Source: Octopus sinensis
Lineage: Eukaryota
Direction of reading: 5' to 3'
Assembly: GCF_006345805.1 (NCBI RefSeq)
Contig: NC_043002.1
Span: 114,142,001 to 114,206,000 of the forward strand
DNA: 64,000 nucleotides
Shown here: one piece after another, positions 20,840 to 53,760 of the stretch
How the letters are laid out: each line of letters opens with the position of its first letter
How positions within the stretch are numbered: position 1 is the first letter of the stretch
The notes under the pieces: model-generated
Seen by the model: the letters and a program-made list of their open reading frames with translations, nothing else
Database searches by the model: none
Told to the model about the DNA's origin: nothing
Program-made: the position numbers and the translations under genes

Positions 20840-21108
20840 CAGTGTTGATGCCATGTAAAAAGCATCCAGTCCACACTATAAAGTGGTTGGCATTTGGAAG
20901 GGTATTTACTTGTAAAACCCATGCCAAAACAGACCTTGCCAGTAGTGGTACCATGTAAAAAGCACTCAATCCACTCTGTAAGGTGGTTGGCATTAGGAAG
21001 GGCATCCAGCTGTAAAAACCATGACAAAACAGACAGTGAAACCTGGTGCAGTCTTCTGGTTATCCAACTCATGCCAGCATAGAAAATGAACATTAAATGA
21101 TGATGATA
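20840..21108 (+). mobile_element. RTE-type 3' tail repeat (family B), degenerate
   Basis: GTGGTTGGCATTAGGAAGGGCATCCAGCTGTA.. ending GCATAGAAAATGAACATTAAATGATGATGAT. Confidence 0.65.
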
Positions 21109-21191
21109 AAGTGTGTGTGTGTGTGTGTGTGTGTGTACGTATACATACAGTGTGTTTGCTATTAACAAATATATTATATTTATATTTTCAG

Positions 21192-22559
21192 GGTGTGAAT
21201 ATTTTGGTATTTCCTGAAAACGGCCTTATTGCACATCTGAGAAATTATTCTCGTACTGATATTGAGAACTTTCTTGACATTATACCACAGCCTAATAAAG
21301 TGAAACCATGGATTCCATGTGATAAACCTGATCTCTATCCAAGAACAGAAATTCAGGAAACTATTAGCTGCATTGCCAAAGAGAACAACATTTATCTTGT
21401 AGTCAATGTCGGAGACATGCAACTCTGCAATCACATGGAAGATTCAAGCTGCCCTTCGGATGGACATTACCAACACAACACTAATGTTGTTTATTCATCA
21501 GAGGGTGCTCTTGTTTCTAAATATCACAAGAAACATCTTTCTGATGAGCCTTATTACAATGCTCCCAAGGCTGCAGAATATGCAGTATTTGATACCCCAT
21601 TTGGTCGTTTTGCAAGCATCGTATCTTACGATATACTCTTCAATGACACACTAAATAATTTAATAGAAAAACATCAAGTTTCAAATATTCTTTTTCCAAA
21701 TCTATGGTTACATGTTCCTCCTTTCTTTTTATCATCTTTATTCCACAATTCAATTGCCAAAGCTTTCAAGATAAACCTTATTTCTGCAAATGTCAAAATA
21801 GCTATGTTCCCAGATATTGTATCGGGTGGAAGTGGTATTTATACACCTGATGAAAGTCTTTATAGATATAAACCCTTTAATTCTATTCCTTCAGACGGAT
21901 ATATTCAGTTACAGATTAAAAATATTGAAGAGTCAGAAAGAAAATTCCTTTGGCCTCTAAAACGTAAAGTTCCCACATCAGACAACTCTGTCGTTAAAAC
22001 AGCTCTTATGACAAACGTTTTCCCTGTATCTGCAGTGATACTTCAGAACGATTCAGGCATTGTTAGTGTGTGTAATTATAAGGTATGTTGTTCTCTTGAG
22101 TACGAATTCATGTCTAATAGAACTTTAAAATTTAAAATCAACTACATTTTAGCAATAAGTAATAAGAAAGATGTAGATCTGACTAATCCAGAAGGCAAAG
22201 AAATGCAATCATGTCTTTTATGTCCAATCTATGATGAAAAAATATCATGTTTGATGACTTTGCCAGCTGATATTCCCAAGGGAGATGTTAGCTTTCGCAA
22301 ATTAAAGATGACAGCTCATAATTTTAATACTCCTTATTTATTTCCCCACATTGCGACTTTTAATTCAAAATCTTACGATATTAATACATCTTGGAAACAT
22401 GACAGAGGAGAAATAGAAAATACAAAACCAATTGAAAAAGTTTTTACTGCTATAATATTTGGAAGATTATATCCTATTGCCTCATCAGCTCCATTTACAG
22501 TATTTCCAATCACTTCAGTAATCTTGTTAAATTTAATATCAAAGGAACTACTTGTTTAG
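21192..22559 (+). CDS. Vanin/pantetheinase/biotinidase-like protein, coding exon 2 (CN-hydrolase plus base domain, hydrophobic GPI-like tail); catalytic Cys replaced by Ser
   Basis: Acceptor TTTTCAG|GGT, phase 0. Motifs GVNILVFPENG (catalytic E), WIPC, ISCIAKENNIYLVVNVGD, CPSDGHYQHNTNVVYSSEGALVSKYHKKHL (catalytic K), FDTPFGRFASIVSYDILF, GGSGIY, VCNYKVCCSLEY, IFGRLY. Open for 455 codons to TAG. Confidence 0.92.
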   Translation, partial: GVNILVFPENGLIAHLRNYSRTDIENFLDIIPQPNKVKPWIPCDKPDLYPRTEIQETISCIAKENNIYLVVNVGDMQLCNHMEDSSCPSDGHYQHNTNVVYSSEGALVSKYHKKHLSDEPYYNAPKAAEYAVFDTPFGRFASIVSYDILFNDTLNNLIEKHQVSNILFPNLWLHVPPFFLSSLFHNSIAKAFKINLISANVKIAMFPDIVSGGSGIYTPDESLYRYKPFNSIPSDGYIQLQIKNIEESERKFLWPLKRKVPTSDNSVVKTALMTNVFPVSAVILQNDSGIVSVCNYKVCCSLEYEFMSNRTLKFKINYILAISNKKDVDLTNPEGKEMQSCLLCPIYDEKISCLMTLPADIPKGDVSFRKLKMTAHNFNTPYLFPHIATFNSKSYDINTSWKHDRGEIENTKPIEKVFTAIIFGRLYPIASSAPFTVFPITSVILLNLISKELLV

Positions 22560-27469: not shown

Positions 27470-27691
27470 TTAGTAATGTTCATATTTCTTCCGAAGAGCC
27501 AAGATCTTCAGTCTGTGACAAGGATCTAAAATTGGTTTCAACACTTGCTCAGTGTTTTCTATCCGACATCGGAACCTCTCTGAATCAATATGAATTTGTA
27601 CCCATTCACCTTTACGGGCAGCTTGGTAGGCATAGCTCCATGCAAACATAAGGTGCTTGGTTTCTAACTTCTCATCAGCAGCAAAACGAAC
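27470..27691 (-). CDS. PPP1R15: PPP1R15 (GADD34/CReP-like) coding exon 2: PP1/eIF2alpha/actin-binding core
   Basis: Acceptor TTTTCCTCCACAG|GTT. VRFAADEKLETKHLMFAWSYAYQAARKGEWVQIHIDSERFRCRIENTEQVLKPILDPCHR matches the GADD34/ICP34.5 core (KVRF..W...A.AAR.G.W....D..RF..RI....L.P.L). Confidence 0.92.
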   Translation of the reverse strand, partial: VRFAADEKLETKHLMFAWSYAYQAARKGEWVQIHIDSERFRCRIENTEQVLKPILDPCHRLKILALRKKYEHY

Positions 27692-32275: not shown

Positions 32276-32619
32276 TTTTATATATAAAAGTGAGGTTGTG
32301 TAGTGTCTGTCTCCTACGATTTAGATTCCTAACTACTCCCACATTTTGCGGTGCAGTTTAACCAAAACCGGGTATCTTATAGTCGTGGTTCATATCGATG
32401 AGTCTACAATTAAAAAAAAAAATTTACCATCATTTTTTTCCCATTTTAATGCATTTTTTCGCTATTATATAAGGGAAGTAACTCTCTAAAAATGTCTACG
32501 ATGGGACGATTAAAAAAAAATTTACCATAATTTTTTTGCTATTTTTTGGCTATAACTCTAAAAATGCTTATATAGTTATTTCCCTTACAAACCCGAGCAA
32601 CGCCGGGCGATACTGCTAG
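32276..32619 (+). mobile_element. Non-autonomous Helitron
   Basis: 3' end CCCGAGCAACGCCGGG hairpin plus CTAG|T. Homologous to the copies at 35630 and 40402. Confidence 0.8.
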
Positions 32620-33487
32620 TTTTTATATATTAAAAAAAAAAGCAGCCTTTCTTTCAATGTTTACACAAAAGAAGACAAATAATTTAAATAGAGGGAGTGC
32701 TTGATTAATATATTGAAAGTGTAAGAGATGGTGGCTGCGGAGGAATTCATTTAGACAGTGTGTGCTGCGGTTAAACTGCGCAGGAATATCTTTTGAACGT
32801 GTCAAGTGCGCGCCCTACTTTCCCCCCCAAATTAAAAAATGTCGAAGAAATTCACCGGCGCCATTTTTACTTTTCGATAATTTCTTCGGGTTTTTTTTCT
32901 TTTTTTTGCTGTCAACACGAAAAATTGGAATTCCAAAAAAAACAAAAACCCCCGTCTTTGAGCTCGGACTATGTACTTTGAAAGGAGTTATTTCCATTGA
33001 TTAGCTAACATTAATGTTAATTAGTATTAATAGAATCCTAATGAGGGAGAGATAGGAGGGAAACCCAAAATCCCCAGCTCGACCCTTAATCTGATAAAAA
33101 AAAGACAAAAAAATCGTAGTCAGTCGAAGAGGAGGACATGCAAAATGCTGCATCCGTTTGAGGGCCACGGAATTATATTCCGCTTTGTGAACTGTTATTA
33201 GATCAGCTTAAAATAGGTTGAACAAACGTTTCACATGATTTTCTCCCACCAAGAGTGAATGAACAACTGCAATTAAAGCAATTTAGGCGAAAAACAGTTT
33301 GAAATTACAGGGCAAATGTAAGAAATGCTGATTGAAAGAACCCAGCTGCTAATATAAAGAGAAATAAAAATTAGATTAATTCGTATAATATTCAAATATA
33401 CAACATATGGCATTCAATGGTTTACAGAAAAGAAATTACAATATATGTTGGCGTGAAATTTTTAAGGAAGTAATAAGAATATTCTAC

Positions 33488-34429
33488 CTTAGCAGCTTTT
33501 TGATGTTGTGTGTCGGTGTCCGGATAGACTTGGTTCCATCTGTGGTTGGCTTTTCCGACGGAATTCGGAATAACGGAGTCTGTAGTTTCAGTTTTTGTAT
33601 TTTGAGTATTTTCAAACAGTTTATTGAAAGAAAAGCAAGGAGTATCAGAGAACAAGATATCATCATCGCAGTCATCATCACTCACACAATCATCACTATC
33701 ACACTCATCATCATCCTCATCATCGCTGTCCACCAGCTGGAAAACGGTTTTCCAAAATGGAACGTCTTTGGTACAGGGTAAACCGTTACAAATTGGGTCT
33801 GAATTGAAATCCCAATTCTCCTCACTGCTCGCATCATCAAAAGAGAAATGTCCATCATCATCGCTGTCCTGGCCATCATGAACAGAGCTGTGCAGATCAG
33901 AAAAAGAGTCTAAATTAGTGGAGTTCATTGGACTTTTGTTGCTCGGACTGAATGACCAGTCGTACTCGCTTTCCTGGGGGAATACTTCTTCGTCTGAAGG
34001 GTTTTCTAACGAGTTAGATTCACTAATAAGACTATCGTATTCAATAGCTAAGTCGAATGGGGGGCAATTAAGATCATCGCTTATAGGGGTGAACAGGACG
34101 GGGTCGGCAATGGGACCACCGTCCGCGGACTTCGCATGCTGTCGGTTCATCTCAATGTTTTTTGTGTTCAATATACGGCTTATGTTGCTGTGGGTGCAGT
34201 CGCCGCAGTTGAGCTGCATAAACAGCATATGTCTTTGTAAATGCACGACACTTAACTTGGCAATAAAGTCTATCAGGGAATCGACTTTGGACGATTCTGG
34301 GGAGCCGCAATAAGTGAAGTCTCCTTCCCTGGGTGTCGTAGTCGTCCTCAGCTGACACACTTCAGGACCCGCCATCTCATGACATGCTTCGTAAGAACTA
34401 AATGGATTTATTAAAGCAGGTGGTGCCAT
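33488..34429 (-). CDS. PPP1R15: PPP1R15 coding exon 1 (acidic/PEST-rich N-terminal region)
   Basis: ATG in strong context (GCAATGG), MAPPALINPF..; D/E/S-rich tracts. Ends ..ANHRWNQVY..HQKAAK with phase-0 donor AAG|GTAGAA. Splicing to 27691 creates the RVxF motif KVRF. Confidence 0.85.
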
Positions 34430-34474
34430 TGCGATGCGAAATCCAATAATCAAATGCGATTTAGATGTGTTTTT

Positions 34475-34783
34475 TCAGAAATTGTTTTGAATGCAGTTTT
34501 GGTGATGGTCAACGAATGTAGCATCAGAAGTGTTTTTGTGGAGTTTGTGACAGGGTGGAAAGGAATATTGGAGCCAATATCTATCGAGTTTATTCCAGTA
34601 TTCATCTGTGTAATTGACTTTTGTCATGAAATATTGAGAATCGTCATTTTCAGTTGAGCTGAAATGTTTAAAGTCATCGGCGAACAAAGTAGACGAAAAA
34701 TCAAGATCTGAGCATAGTGCGGAACATAATACATCCATTTCTGTGATAAATATAAATCCAATTAGAGAAAGTAGACTTTGCAT
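34475..34783 (-). CDS. Long upstream ORF of PPP1R15 (102 aa from ATG 34783, or 87 aa from ATG 34738)
   Basis: MDVLCSALCSDLDF..DEYWNKLDRYWLQYSFPPCHK..QNNF*. Lies between the predicted TSS and the main ATG and ends 45 nt before it. uORF control is established for PPP1R15A/B. Confidence 0.55.
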   Translation of the reverse strand: MQSLLSLIGFIFITEMDVLCSALCSDLDFSSTLFADDFKHFSSTENDDSQYFMTKVNYTDEYWNKLDRYWLQYSFPPCHKLHKNTSDATFVDHHQNCIQNNF

Positions 34784-34826: not shown

Positions 34827-34856
34827 TTAATCACGAAGCATTTGTATTCCTTTCAT
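34827..34856 (-). CDS. Short upstream ORF1 of PPP1R15 (MKGIQMLRD*)
   Basis: First ATG 11 nt after the predicted TSS; TAA at 34829..34827. Confidence 0.4.
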   Translation of the reverse strand: MKGIQMLRD

Positions 34857-34864
34857 ATTTTGGG

Positions 34865-34898
34865 AGTGACGCGGTCGACGGAAGTCGCGCTATTTATA
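34865..34898 (-). promoter_or_regulatory. Core promoter of PPP1R15: TATA box plus Initiator
   Basis: Minus-strand TATAAATA (34898..34891) in a CpG-rich patch. TCACT Inr-like motif with its A at 34867, 31 nt from the first T of the TATA box. Confidence 0.65.
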
Positions 34899-35115: not shown

Positions 35116-35124
35116 ATTGCATCA
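35116..35124. promoter_or_regulatory. C/EBP-ATF (ATF4) amino-acid response element
   Basis: ATTGCATCA (TGATGCAAT in gene orientation), identical to the CHOP/DDIT3 AARE core, ~250 bp upstream of the predicted TSS in non-repeat sequence. Confidence 0.55.
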
Positions 35125-35629: not shown

Positions 35630-36028
35630 CTAACAATATCGCCCGGCGTTGCTCGGGTATGTAAGGGAAATAACTATATAAGCATTTTTAGAGAGTTATA
35701 GCCAAAAAATAGCAAAAAAATGCATTAAAAATGGAAAAAAAATTATGGTAATTTTTTTTTAAATCGTTGACTCATCGTAGACATTTTTAGAGAGTTACTT
35801 CCCTTATATAATAGCGAAAAAATGCATTAAAATGGAAAAAATGATGGTAATTTTTTTTTTAAATCGTAGACTCATCGTAGACGCATGCTAATACCCAGAA
35901 GGACTCGATATGAATCACGACTATAAGATACCCGGTTTTGGTTAAAATGCACCGCAAAATGTGGGAGTAGTTAGGAATCTAAATCGTAGGAGACAGACAG
36001 CACACAACCTCACTTTTATATATAAAGA
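35630..36028 (-). mobile_element. Non-autonomous Helitron
   Basis: Reverse-oriented homologue of 32276..32619; 5' TCTTTATATATAAAAG, 3' hairpin plus TTAG. Confidence 0.8.
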
Positions 36029-36563
36029 TATATATTCTTGATTCAGACTGCGACCACGAGGAGTCCCCAACTTATGGGGACATAAACACACCAACATCAG
36101 TGGTCAAGTGGCGGTGGTGGGGGCAAACAGACACACATACACATACATTTATATATTTGATGGTCTTTTAGTTTCCATCTACCAAATTCACTCAAGGCTT
36201 TGGTTGGCCCAAGGATATAGTAGAGAACTCTTCCTCAAGGTGCTACACAGTAGGACTGAACCTGGATCTATGTGGAGGGGGAAAACTTCTTTATTTCTTA
36301 TAAATTACCAGAAAGGCATTAAATAGAGGGGTCACTACAACACATATAAATGAACATGAAACATTAAAATCAAAATATCAAAATAATGATACATGAATGA
36401 TAACTTGAGAAATGAGAATATGGAAATTGTGTCACTCCCCGCACCACTGAGTAACCCCACTCACCACCTCTGAGTCCTGAGTCCTCTTTAGTCCTTGATC
36501 TAGTCTTTCGTTTACCGTTTTCCCCATCACTGAGTGACAACAATCTCTCCTCCATCTACATGT

Positions 36564-51042: not shown

Positions 51043-53760
51043 TATGGTGTATGCGGGAGATTTGAAGTAAGACACCTACCTTATCTTCGTCAAAGCAGAC
51101 CTCTCCGGTGGTAATACACCCTTCCACGTGCCTGACCCAAACACTAAAAATAGCAACTGCTTTTCCCTTACCTTGTCGAAGCACTCACACATCCGATCGA
51201 AAATGCCCAATTGTCCCCTGCCTGTGCGTATGTCACTCTTGCGTCCTTCCTCTTCTGGTCAGCTCCCAAGTTCTGGTCAGCTCCCCAGCTGCTGACATCA
51301 TCCCACATGCCACCCTAATCTTAAAGATCACATTCTCTCTACTCCATGTCGAAGTCCACCATCCAACCGGGAGGGCATCTTGCGCGTCAAGATCTTCTCA
51401 GGCTAGGCACCTCGTTCTCCTCCTCTCCACTATCGTCATCCAACAAAGTGACAATCCTGTGAAGGTCCAAGACGTGTCATGGCATTCCATCCACGGAGAT
51501 GTTGTTTCTGGAATTGACCGCTGCACTGTTCCTCTGCTTTATTGAGACATACAGCGCACCTTCCTCCCTTATTTTCAACAGGCGGGTCCCTTCTCTTCCT
51601 TGTGACACTCCGATGCTTTACTTTGATGCCTCCATTCATATTTAAATAGCGCTCTGTGTGGCACAGATTCTTCAGCTTGTTCGGATCGGGGAGACACATT
51701 GTACCAGAAAACTGCTTCCAGCAGCAAAATGTGCCCTCTTTCCGCTATGGCCTTGACTGTCTGATGGTGCCTCTCTACGATTCCATTACCGCTTGGCCTA
51801 TACACTGCTCTAAACAAGCGACACACTTTCCACCAGTCGTGCATATCCCTCAACACTTCCGAATGAAAAGCTGCCTCATTGTCCATTAGCAGTTCTTCCA
51901 TGAGACCCTTCTCTAAAAATATCCCATTCAAAATCTGCGCAATCTCGTTAGCAATGCCCATCCTCAACTCCCTCCAAATGGCCAGCAGGCCCGGCCTGCA
52001 GTCGACCATGGAGAGATACACTCCCTGACGGTAGTGCCTCACATCCACAGCTACTCTCTTCCAGTTGTGCTCCACCAAAAGGTTTCCTTGCTCATGCCCA
52101 CACGGAGCAGGGTCAATGGACTGACACCTGTCGCAGCTCCCGACCACTTTCCGGATGCTTCTCCTAGTGACGTCAGCATCAATCATCTTCATGAGATACA
52201 GGGTCCTGTCCACACCCAAGTGATGCATAGCATGCAGTCTCTTCAGTTCAAAGTCATCCAACCAACATGCCAGAGCTATCCCTTTCTTTGCCTCCTCCGG
52301 CTCCCCCAACCATGCCCTTTTCTCCCTGGTCTGTGCATCTGCCCTGTTTCTCTCTGAAGGTACGAAAACCACGTTCAGCTTCAGTCTGAACTTGGCAATC
52401 AATTCTCCTAGAACTCCTAGACAGTGTTTCATCAATATCTCCATGGTACCTTTCGTTCGAACTCTCCTCTCACTGTTGATCACTGATCCTACCCTGCCAA
52501 GCACAGTGACTGAATCCGTCTTTATTTCAATTGAGCACAGCCCCCATTTCAGGGCCAAGTTCACCCCCTTCAGCACTGCGTCTAATTCGGTGACATTAAT
52601 ATGGTTAAAGTCGTCTGCTTTCCGAAGCCAGGCTGCGTCCTCTACCTCGGTGCCTTCAATCTCCAACACAACCCCTATCGCTATACTGCTATCATCACAC
52701 CAGATGGTCCTGCATTCCATCTTGGGCACATACCACTTCCCCTTGACCAGGTCTTCTGCTCTCGTCCTCTCTGGGATTTCCCGCATCATCGCCACCATCA
52801 CTTCTCTCAACTTGTCACCCCAACTCCCCGCCTCCACTCGTCTCTTGGTGTAACTGCATGCTGTGCACAGCCATACAGTGATCGGGTAGTGACCGACCAA
52901 CTTCCCACACACCGAGAACAGCTCTCTCTTGCTGGAACTCAGCTCTGGGATTTTATTTCCTCTCCAGAACACCAACTCACCTGATCTATCTCTTCGCAGC
53001 TTCCCCTTCCATCGACTCCGGTGGCTTCGCAATCAGTCCGAACTCCAGATGTCTCACTACCTCGTTGGCTGGCACTACAGTTTCGTCCACCAAAATGTCA
53101 TCTATGTAGGAACTGGTGGCCTTTCTTATCTTGTCCTCTTTCCCTAGGATGGACTTAAGCACCACCGCCATGATCTTCGGAGCAGAATTCAGTCCGAAAC
53201 CCAGCCTAGTTAAACAATATTTCAGGCCCTTATACTGCACCAGCTGATATTGCCACAGTTTGTCGCTCACATGGAGCTGCAAGTATGCCGATTTCAAGTC
53301 GATAATCGTCGCTGCCTTGGTTGACTGTCTCCACACACGTAACGTCTCGCCACAAACGTCTGTCACTTCGCCACCTGTGTGGCATGATATATGCTCATTT
53401 ATCTCTCTCAAGTCCAGCACTGGTCTGACTTTTCCCTTTGTCGGCTGCACCACTGCCATCAGAGGTAGCACTCCGCCCACTACCTTCTCTTCCCACAGGA
53501 CAAGGATTCCTTCCTCGATCCACCTTGTCTTCGAACTCAACCCTGGCGTGACCTTTCAGGGTACGCTGGTAGCAGCTCACCCTGTTCTTCAGCATCGGGG
53601 GCTCATCTTTCCATCGCCATTCTATCGTCTACCACTGACCATCGAACGCCACCTGAAAATCCTTGTCCTCAATGGTGTAAGTGGCGCAGTCCCTCGCAGG
53701 GCTCTGCTCTCTCTGGCGATCCTGACTCACAGCACGATTTTATCTCTGCTTTGTGATACT
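51043..53760 (-). mobile_element. Ty3/Gypsy LTR retrotransposon relic: RT, RNase H, integrase, 3' LTR (51043..51307)
   Basis: KVRPVLDLREIN..IDLKSAYLQ..RLGFGLNSAP..SYIDDILV; WCDDSSIAIG..HINVTELDAV..KTDS..NRADA; H..HHLGVDRT..CDRC, VAVD..LMDNE..GNGIVERHH. Frameshifted and 5' truncated. Purine-rich tract precedes the LTR TGTGG on minus. Confidence 0.9.

Follow-up and report, generated by a model that had tools for sequence, protein, structure and literature searches.

The leader of the octopus PPP1R15 gene carries a real, unannotated and peptide-conserved upstream open reading frame (uORF) of 87 codons, at 34475..34738 on the minus strand of the window, the whole 64-kb stretch of Octopus sinensis DNA analysed here. 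It is a variant of the known GADD34/CReP control. We give a probability of roughly 55% to the reading that it is a conserved-peptide inhibitory uORF, slowing ribosomes near F75-P76 and thereby making PPP1R15 stress-inducible. The preliminary description had called it an undescribed system, which overstates the case because uORF control of PPP1R15 is reported in mammals (PMC4383229) and flies (PMC10743859).

The two-exon gene downstream of the uORF is PPP1R15, a GADD34/CReP relative, as judged by its sequence. Coding exon 1 (33488..34429, minus strand) has 314 codons, is acidic and ends in KAAK, and coding exon 2 (27470..27691, minus strand) starts with VRF and encodes the PP1/eIF2-alpha-binding domain in 73 codons and a stop. 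The KVRF sequence, an RVxF-type PP1 motif, spans the exon junction, and the C-terminus holds both this motif and the eIF2-alpha-binding region. The joined product is P0005, which is annotated in Octopus sinensis as an uncharacterized protein. When five such proteins are combined in a profile (A2), it matches the human PPP1R15A chain 7nzm_C with an E-value of 4.6e-6, and also chains of DP71L (E 0.003) and PPP1R15B (E 0.06). The Pfam family PP1c_bdg (PF10488) matches below threshold, with an E-value of 0.01 and 16 bits vs the cut-off of 26.1.

The GT..AG splice between the two exons is present in the contigs of all four runs, which come from four studies and organisms A and B. Their records are not labelled RNA in the databases; the joint shows them to be spliced. 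They all cover exon 1 without a joint up to the splice with exon 2, and their matches begin at 34867 in three runs and at 34862 in the other. Contig 5′ ends cannot prove a transcription start, which is likely at 34867, the A of an initiator-like TCACT (34865..34869, minus strand). A TATA box by sequence (34891..34898, minus strand) lies 31 nt ahead of the transcript 5′ end. An exact copy of TGATGCAAT (35116..35124, minus strand), a candidate C/EBP-ATF element of the ATF4/C-EBP type, lies some 250 bp ahead of the transcript start. It occurs twice within the window vs 1.05 times expected by chance.

The leader is 438 nt long, unspliced and single-copy in its own genome. Its 12 ATGs comprise that of a 9-codon uORF1, three in frame for the long uORF and others out of frame. 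The uORF1 (34827..34856, minus strand) begins 11 nt from the 5′ end with A at -3, precedes the long uORF and was absent from the preliminary description. RNA folding gave z-scores of -0.26 to +1.23 across all five pieces of the leader, and no RNA structure was found in the conserved core by its folding z-score (-0.26).

The uORF lies entirely within this leader from ATG to stop, and its stop is 45 nt upstream of the PPP1R15 ATG at 34429. Its longest form has 102 codons (34475..34783, minus strand), whose first ATG is in weak context and not conserved. Organism D has 2 extra nt at 34777-34779, between the first two ATGs. Since this frameshifts the first ATG, the 102-codon form is local and the conserved frame is that of 87 codons, running from M16 (G at -3 and G at +4) to TGA. 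The uORF encodes ...EYWNKLDRYWLQYSFPPC... and has a conserved core of 28 residues, S49-P76 or SQYFMTKVNYTDEYWNKLDRYWLQYSFP (34556..34639, minus strand), with DRYW at 34585-34574. A third in-frame ATG within the core, M53 at 34627, is in weak context.

Thus, an ORF of 87-102 codons containing EYWNKLDRYWLQYSFPPC in the PPP1R15 leader, its second ATG at 34738 and its position in the mRNA could all be verified. Its alleged protein-like composition is not shown at the DNA level, because the GC content of the uORF (35%) is about that of the flanks (33%) and below that of the CDS (44%).

Two other ATG arrangements are seen inside the core. The M53 ATG overlaps the TGA of an out-of-frame 36-codon uORF as ATGA (34627-34624, minus strand), a possible stop-start coupling. 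An out-of-frame ATG at 34605-34603 (minus strand) depends on the E61 codon, and it is probably missing in both relatives examined below because K replaces E61 in both.

It is very improbable that the ORF is untranslated, either as a chance frame, by splicing out before M16 or by lying upstream of the true start site. A branch-point-like CTAAT-pyrimidine-CAG stretch does precede 34739, and ATG-started ORFs of 87 codons or more arise in 2% of dinucleotide shuffles of the leader (67/3000; at least 102 codons in 24/3000). On the other side, the leader is crossed without a joint in two sets of four runs each, one run being common to both, the 5′ ends agree with the TATA box and the initiator, and the frame and the core are conserved. 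For the main isoform, this reading is refuted, and splicing of the leader was rejected as well. A transcription start downstream of the uORF, which would have undone the preliminary description, is not the case since the leader contigs of all four runs place the uORF inside the mRNA.

The informative relatives are two proteins only, P0003 and P0004, both from Logan. P0003 is a machine translation of the corresponding leader with TGA read as Trp, and its changes agree with those in the organism D contigs. These contigs cover the leader and the CDS start, linking P0003 to PPP1R15. The N-terminus of P0003, obtained by the TGA read-through, matches another frame of the uORF1 stretch, so the uORF1 DNA is probably retained in that organism.

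From the common length of their contigs (2122 nt), their only link, we infer that P0004 comes from the same species as P0008, a PPP1R15 protein, and is encoded upstream of it. P0008 is closer to the octopus than the Argonauta protein is, because their identities to P0005 are 71% and 46%, respectively. Between P0008 and the octopus protein, 65/73 residues of the PP1-binding exon-2 domain and 189/314 of the remainder are identical.

The octopus frame, P0003 and P0004 have in common M16, the reading frame and the terminal QNNF. In both relatives, 27 of the 28 core residues are identical, with 55-73% identity in the flanks. Apart from one E/K change, the core is invariant, with 12 residues on one side of it and 15 on the other. 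For Q50-P76, the identity is 26/27 in either relative, with 44/60 (P0003) and 33/60 (P0004) in the flanks. Between the octopus and the P0004/P0008 species, conservation of the core equals that of the best-kept stretch of the PP1-binding domain. The peptide is conserved ahead of the PPP1R15 frame in the organism of P0003 and probably in that of P0004, and by this conservation the uORF qualifies as a conserved-peptide uORF (CPuORF). A lack of amino-acid conservation in related species, the other finding that would have told against the preliminary description, is not seen with such a core.

Frame-breaking indels in the relatives, 3-5 events according to the counting of neighbouring ones, all fall outside the M16-stop stretch, and the sole indel within it is a deletion of 3 codons. 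This placement has a crude p of 0.01-0.025, in a frame test biased by the fact that both relatives were found as ORFs. Among the 8 listed changes in the N-terminal flank in organism D, 4 alter the amino acid and 4 are silent, not significantly below neutral. Organism B has no listed change within the uORF. The terminal QNNF (34475-34489, minus strand) is invariant in all three sequences, while the preceding 20 residues drift, and may be a termination-context element.

Peptide-level constraint on the core is likely from these comparisons. The alternative is an ordinary inhibitory uORF that represses by its length and start contexts, with an irrelevant peptide and a core kept by slow divergence or at the nucleotide level, for instance as a protein-binding site or the initiation context of M53. 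Best-window permutation for the core clustering gives p 0.001 for P0004 and a non-significant p 0.12 for P0003, so the latter alone is compatible with such a uORF. The organism D contigs do not span 34451-34619, and the core comparison with the diverged relatives is at the amino-acid level. There is also a precedent: the human PPP1R15B uORF has a PhyloCSF of -721 in mammals, as given in PMC10032668, and still regulates translation (PMC4383229).

Against it, the 84 nt of the core show one amino-acid change in P0004, while 45% of the flank residues have changed. Moreover, the core has no RNA fold, and its conserved residues follow a helical, amphipathic pattern. We thus regard the ordinary uORF as rather unlikely.

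Structurally, the core is predicted to form an amphipathic helix (D60-S74) with a hydrophobic moment of up to 0.65. The AlphaFold helix is of low confidence, with a pLDDT of about 53 in the core. The core is about one exit-tunnel length long and its last residue is Pro. Arrest peptides are about one exit-tunnel length long and end at Pro.

The same helix would allow another reading, a bicistronic mRNA whose uORF makes a stable microprotein that binds a partner or a membrane in trans through D60-S74, as with the MIEF1 and SLC35A4 uORFs. The conserved start, frame and terminal QNNF over 84-87 codons and the hydrophobic moment of about 0.6 are consistent with it. Bicistronic stress-resistant mRNAs exist (PMC4383229), and the human uORF of GADD34 was among those that scored in a Perturb-seq screen (PMC10032668). 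This is nonetheless improbable, as two thirds of the peptide drifts at 55-73% identity and only 28/87 residues are conserved, where a microprotein of the MIEF1/SLC35A4 type would have a known domain or a folded product kept over most of its length. No Pfam family was matched by the uORF peptide, and the mean AlphaFold pLDDT is 43, weak evidence on a 3-row alignment. In mouse, the GADD34 uORF peptide went undetected by several methods, as reported in bioRxiv 10.1101/2021.12.11.472232.

In this genome, 118 codons separate the uORF start from the main ATG in one frame with a single stop, and the uORF might be an N-terminal extension of PPP1R15 if the TGA were read through, decoded as selenocysteine or edited (A-to-I). 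Only in this genome does the spacer of 45 nt (34430..34474, minus strand) lack stops and keep the PPP1R15 frame. An insertion of 10 nt in the spacer breaks the frame in organisms B and C, although no change is listed for their uORF; organism D has an AT microsatellite there, and the frame of P0003 shifts directly after the stop. Organism A contigs show no other letter at the stop, contigs being prone to drop rare variants, and the annotated relatives start at MAPP or just before. Readthrough or A-to-I editing into PPP1R15 was rejected because the relatives' spacers break the shared frame, and the extension is hardly credible.

The human GADD34 uORF2 has 26 codons with DRFW at 13-16, PP at 24-25 and a PPG-stop end (PMC10032668), as the preliminary description had it. 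The human frame has a PhyloCSF of +77 in mammals (PMC10032668), and the mouse one retains FWQ and PPG-stop (bioRxiv 10.1101/2021.12.11.472232). Reinitiation is reportedly blocked by PPG-stop (PMC9971878, citing Young 2015; PMC10962698). The importance of PPG-stop for repression, as stated in the preliminary description, agrees with this, and PMC9971878 gives it second-hand from Young 2015.

Aligning the octopus DRYW with DRFW gives a BLOSUM62 score of 25, and no better alignment was found by eye. Among random 26-mers compared with the 27-residue core, 141/10000 and 279/10000 reached this score on two backgrounds and 11/3000 with GC-rich codons. The chance is thus 0.4-3% against the core and 2-6% (2.4-6.1%) against the whole uORF. 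A DR[FY]W occurs in 11/20000 shuffled leaders, the motif having been chosen after the fact. With M53 as residue 1, DRYW occupies 15-18 and PP 24-25 of the octopus peptide, and this coincident position of PP favours the proposed likeness at the sequence level.

The octopus PP is internal, as had been described, 26-27 codons ahead of the stop, and all three sequences end in QNNF-stop. The octopus uORF lacks the terminal Pro-Pro-Gly-stop, which makes it less probable that it is the GADD34 uORF2 itself and leaves unaffected the idea that it works like one. As for the proposed DR[FY]W-x5-7-PP motif, its first half stands within the conserved block and its second half is not kept, the second Pro being Arg in P0004 (PR). 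Bilaterian-wide conservation goes beyond the data: only two close relatives were found, the human likeness is four residues and P0004 does not share PP.

The four-residue likeness is suggestive as to common ancestry. That the octopus core (25 residues from M53 to PP) and the 26-residue mammalian GADD34 uORF share a bilaterian ancestral regulatory peptide would be possible yet doubtful. The W-to-Pro spacing is 6 in the octopus vs 8 in human, PP is PR in P0004 and DR[FY]W is absent from the human paralogue PPP1R15B. In addition, a chance match with 46% identity over 26 residues (L002) turns up in the octopus's own genome.

If ancestral, this amphipathic peptide with DR[FY]W would have tuned the PPP1R15 feedback by ribosome arrest for >500 million years, with the stall at termination in mammals and during elongation in the octopus. 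The DRFW would then be functional in the human uORF besides PPG-stop, and its mutation should weaken repression. Otherwise, the octopus frame is still an unannotated octopod regulatory peptide of a familiar kind.

Homolog searches returned the same two relatives. The word-indexed search, for unfused, full-length forms, found two matches among 2 candidates with the query P0001 and the same two among 6 with the alignment A1. The HMM search, run with HMMER over 1,835,955,588 representatives of all lengths, brought one match, P0004 itself. Hence, no uORF homolog beyond P0003 and P0004 was found in 1.84 billion proteins, where uORFs are poorly represented. These blanks say little because even the close relatives have only two uORF products in the database. 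In the ESM Atlas, the best scores of 0.87 and 0.84 were under the lead level of 0.9. The pattern matches in metagenome contigs were verified in 0/252 (A1) and 0/216 (A2) cases and those in viral contigs in 0/94. No intermediate taxon carrying a DR[FY]W-type uORF was found in the protein, ESM Atlas and metagenome searches.

The second protein match in the octopus's own genome, L002 (E 0.8), was rejected as a uORF homolog since it has no ATG and lies among repeats. It is taken as chance, which shows that aromatic-rich matches arise easily.

In a fly-table survey of conserved frames, a frame of 26 codons reportedly may lie below the length limit of the study. No conserved Gadd34 peptide in flies appears in that table (PMC4568590) or the main text of PMC2276209, and the part of the PMC4568590 supplement examined has no PPP1R15/Gadd34 row. 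The main text of an animal CPuORF survey (PMC7530721) does not name PPP1R15, and its supplement may include PPP1R15A. Among the titles and abstract starts listed in literature searches, none dealt with a mollusc or cephalopod PPP1R15 uORF or with cross-phylum conservation of the GADD34 uORF peptide.

For the preferred reading, a peptide-dependent inhibitory uORF, the nascent peptide would repress PPP1R15 translation in cis by slowing the ribosome near F75-P76. The short uORF1 would let ribosomes resume scanning, while others leak past it, and those past it would start at M16 in strong context or M53 in weak context. The long, slowly decoded frame would block scanning and allow little reinitiation, and queues would keep PPP1R15 low. 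With the uORF stop some 990 nt ahead of the single exon junction, the untranslated mRNA would become open to nonsense-mediated decay. Simple leaky scanning would be inefficient because up to 12 upstream ATGs must be passed.

Upon stress, eIF2-alpha phosphorylation would leave fewer ternary complexes, delaying reinitiation and reducing collisions. More 40S subunits would then reach the main ATG, and PPP1R15-PP1 would reset eIF2-alpha. This would be the feedback loop of GADD34/CReP, except that ribosomes would be slowed inside the frame, during elongation, instead of at the mammalian PPG-stop. The candidate ATF4-type element upstream would add a GADD34-like transcriptional induction. Models predict resistance to stress, on a fall in ribosome loading, for uORFs that are long or slowly decoded (PMC6033536; PMC9648851).

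Among known systems, the mammalian PPP1R15A (GADD34) uORF2 shares the gene family, the leader place and another uORF ahead. It differs in that the octopus frame has 50-102 codons and no PPG-stop, the likeness being limited to four residues and PP. The human PPP1R15B (CReP) leader also has a short uORF and then a long one ahead of the CDS, 8 and 52 codons, and its long uORF alone confers stress resistance (PMC4383229). Its peptide has neither DR[FY]W nor coding-like conservation according to PMC10032668, whereas the octopus core is conserved. The PPP1R15B uORF is reported as essential in three cell lines (bioRxiv 10.1101/2025.07.07.663426).

Elongation-stall uORFs encode a conserved nascent peptide by which ribosomes are slowed and the main ORF is buffered when loading is low (PMC6033536, PMC9648851). 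Those of DDIT3/CHOP, AZIN1, AMD1 and CMV UL4 (uORF2) are alike in peptide-slowed ribosomes, which the octopus uORF would have too, but no likeness of their sequences to the octopus core was found. Drosophila also has a single invertebrate PPP1R15 (Gadd34) under uORF control, with a translational, uORF-based stress induction (PMC10743859), but shows no conserved peptide in two fly surveys, as far as these were searched.

PPP1R15 controls how the integrated stress response is switched off, and tests of its mammalian uORF as a target for drugs are under way. With the peptide-conserved uORF of a mollusc, the uORF control of PPP1R15 would reach a third animal lineage. This uORF is also a natural variant without the PPG-stop thought to act in mammals.

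Within the main ORF, residues of about 50-70 (34282-34220, minus strand) form a helix-like stretch, SLIDFIAKLSVVHLQRHMLF, conserved in P0008 and the Argonauta protein. By its sequence, it is a candidate membrane-targeting helix of PPP1R15. Three 5′-truncated PPP1R15 duplicates (L004-L009) lie at C18:17045610-17045828, C18:16810607-16810825 and C18:17166423-17166641. They retain the intron position and a PP1/eIF2-alpha-binding exon with 96-97% identity, but the leader, the uORFs and some 165 codons of the N-terminus are missing. Two of the three are annotated, with 162-171 aa (P0006, P0007). If expressed, the duplicates would yield uORF-free mini-proteins, possibly constitutive.

Elsewhere in the window, a repeat element in two copies of opposite orientation (32300-32620 and 35630-36030) brackets exon 1 and the promoter, and the high read depth of the same short flanking repeat marks it as common. 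Downstream of PPP1R15 on the same strand, an open frame of 489 codons (21090-22559, minus strand) looks by eye like an exon of a vanin/biotinidase-type nitrilase. At 51575-53555 (minus strand), there are LTR retrotransposon fragments with open frames that by eye resemble reverse transcriptase and integrase.
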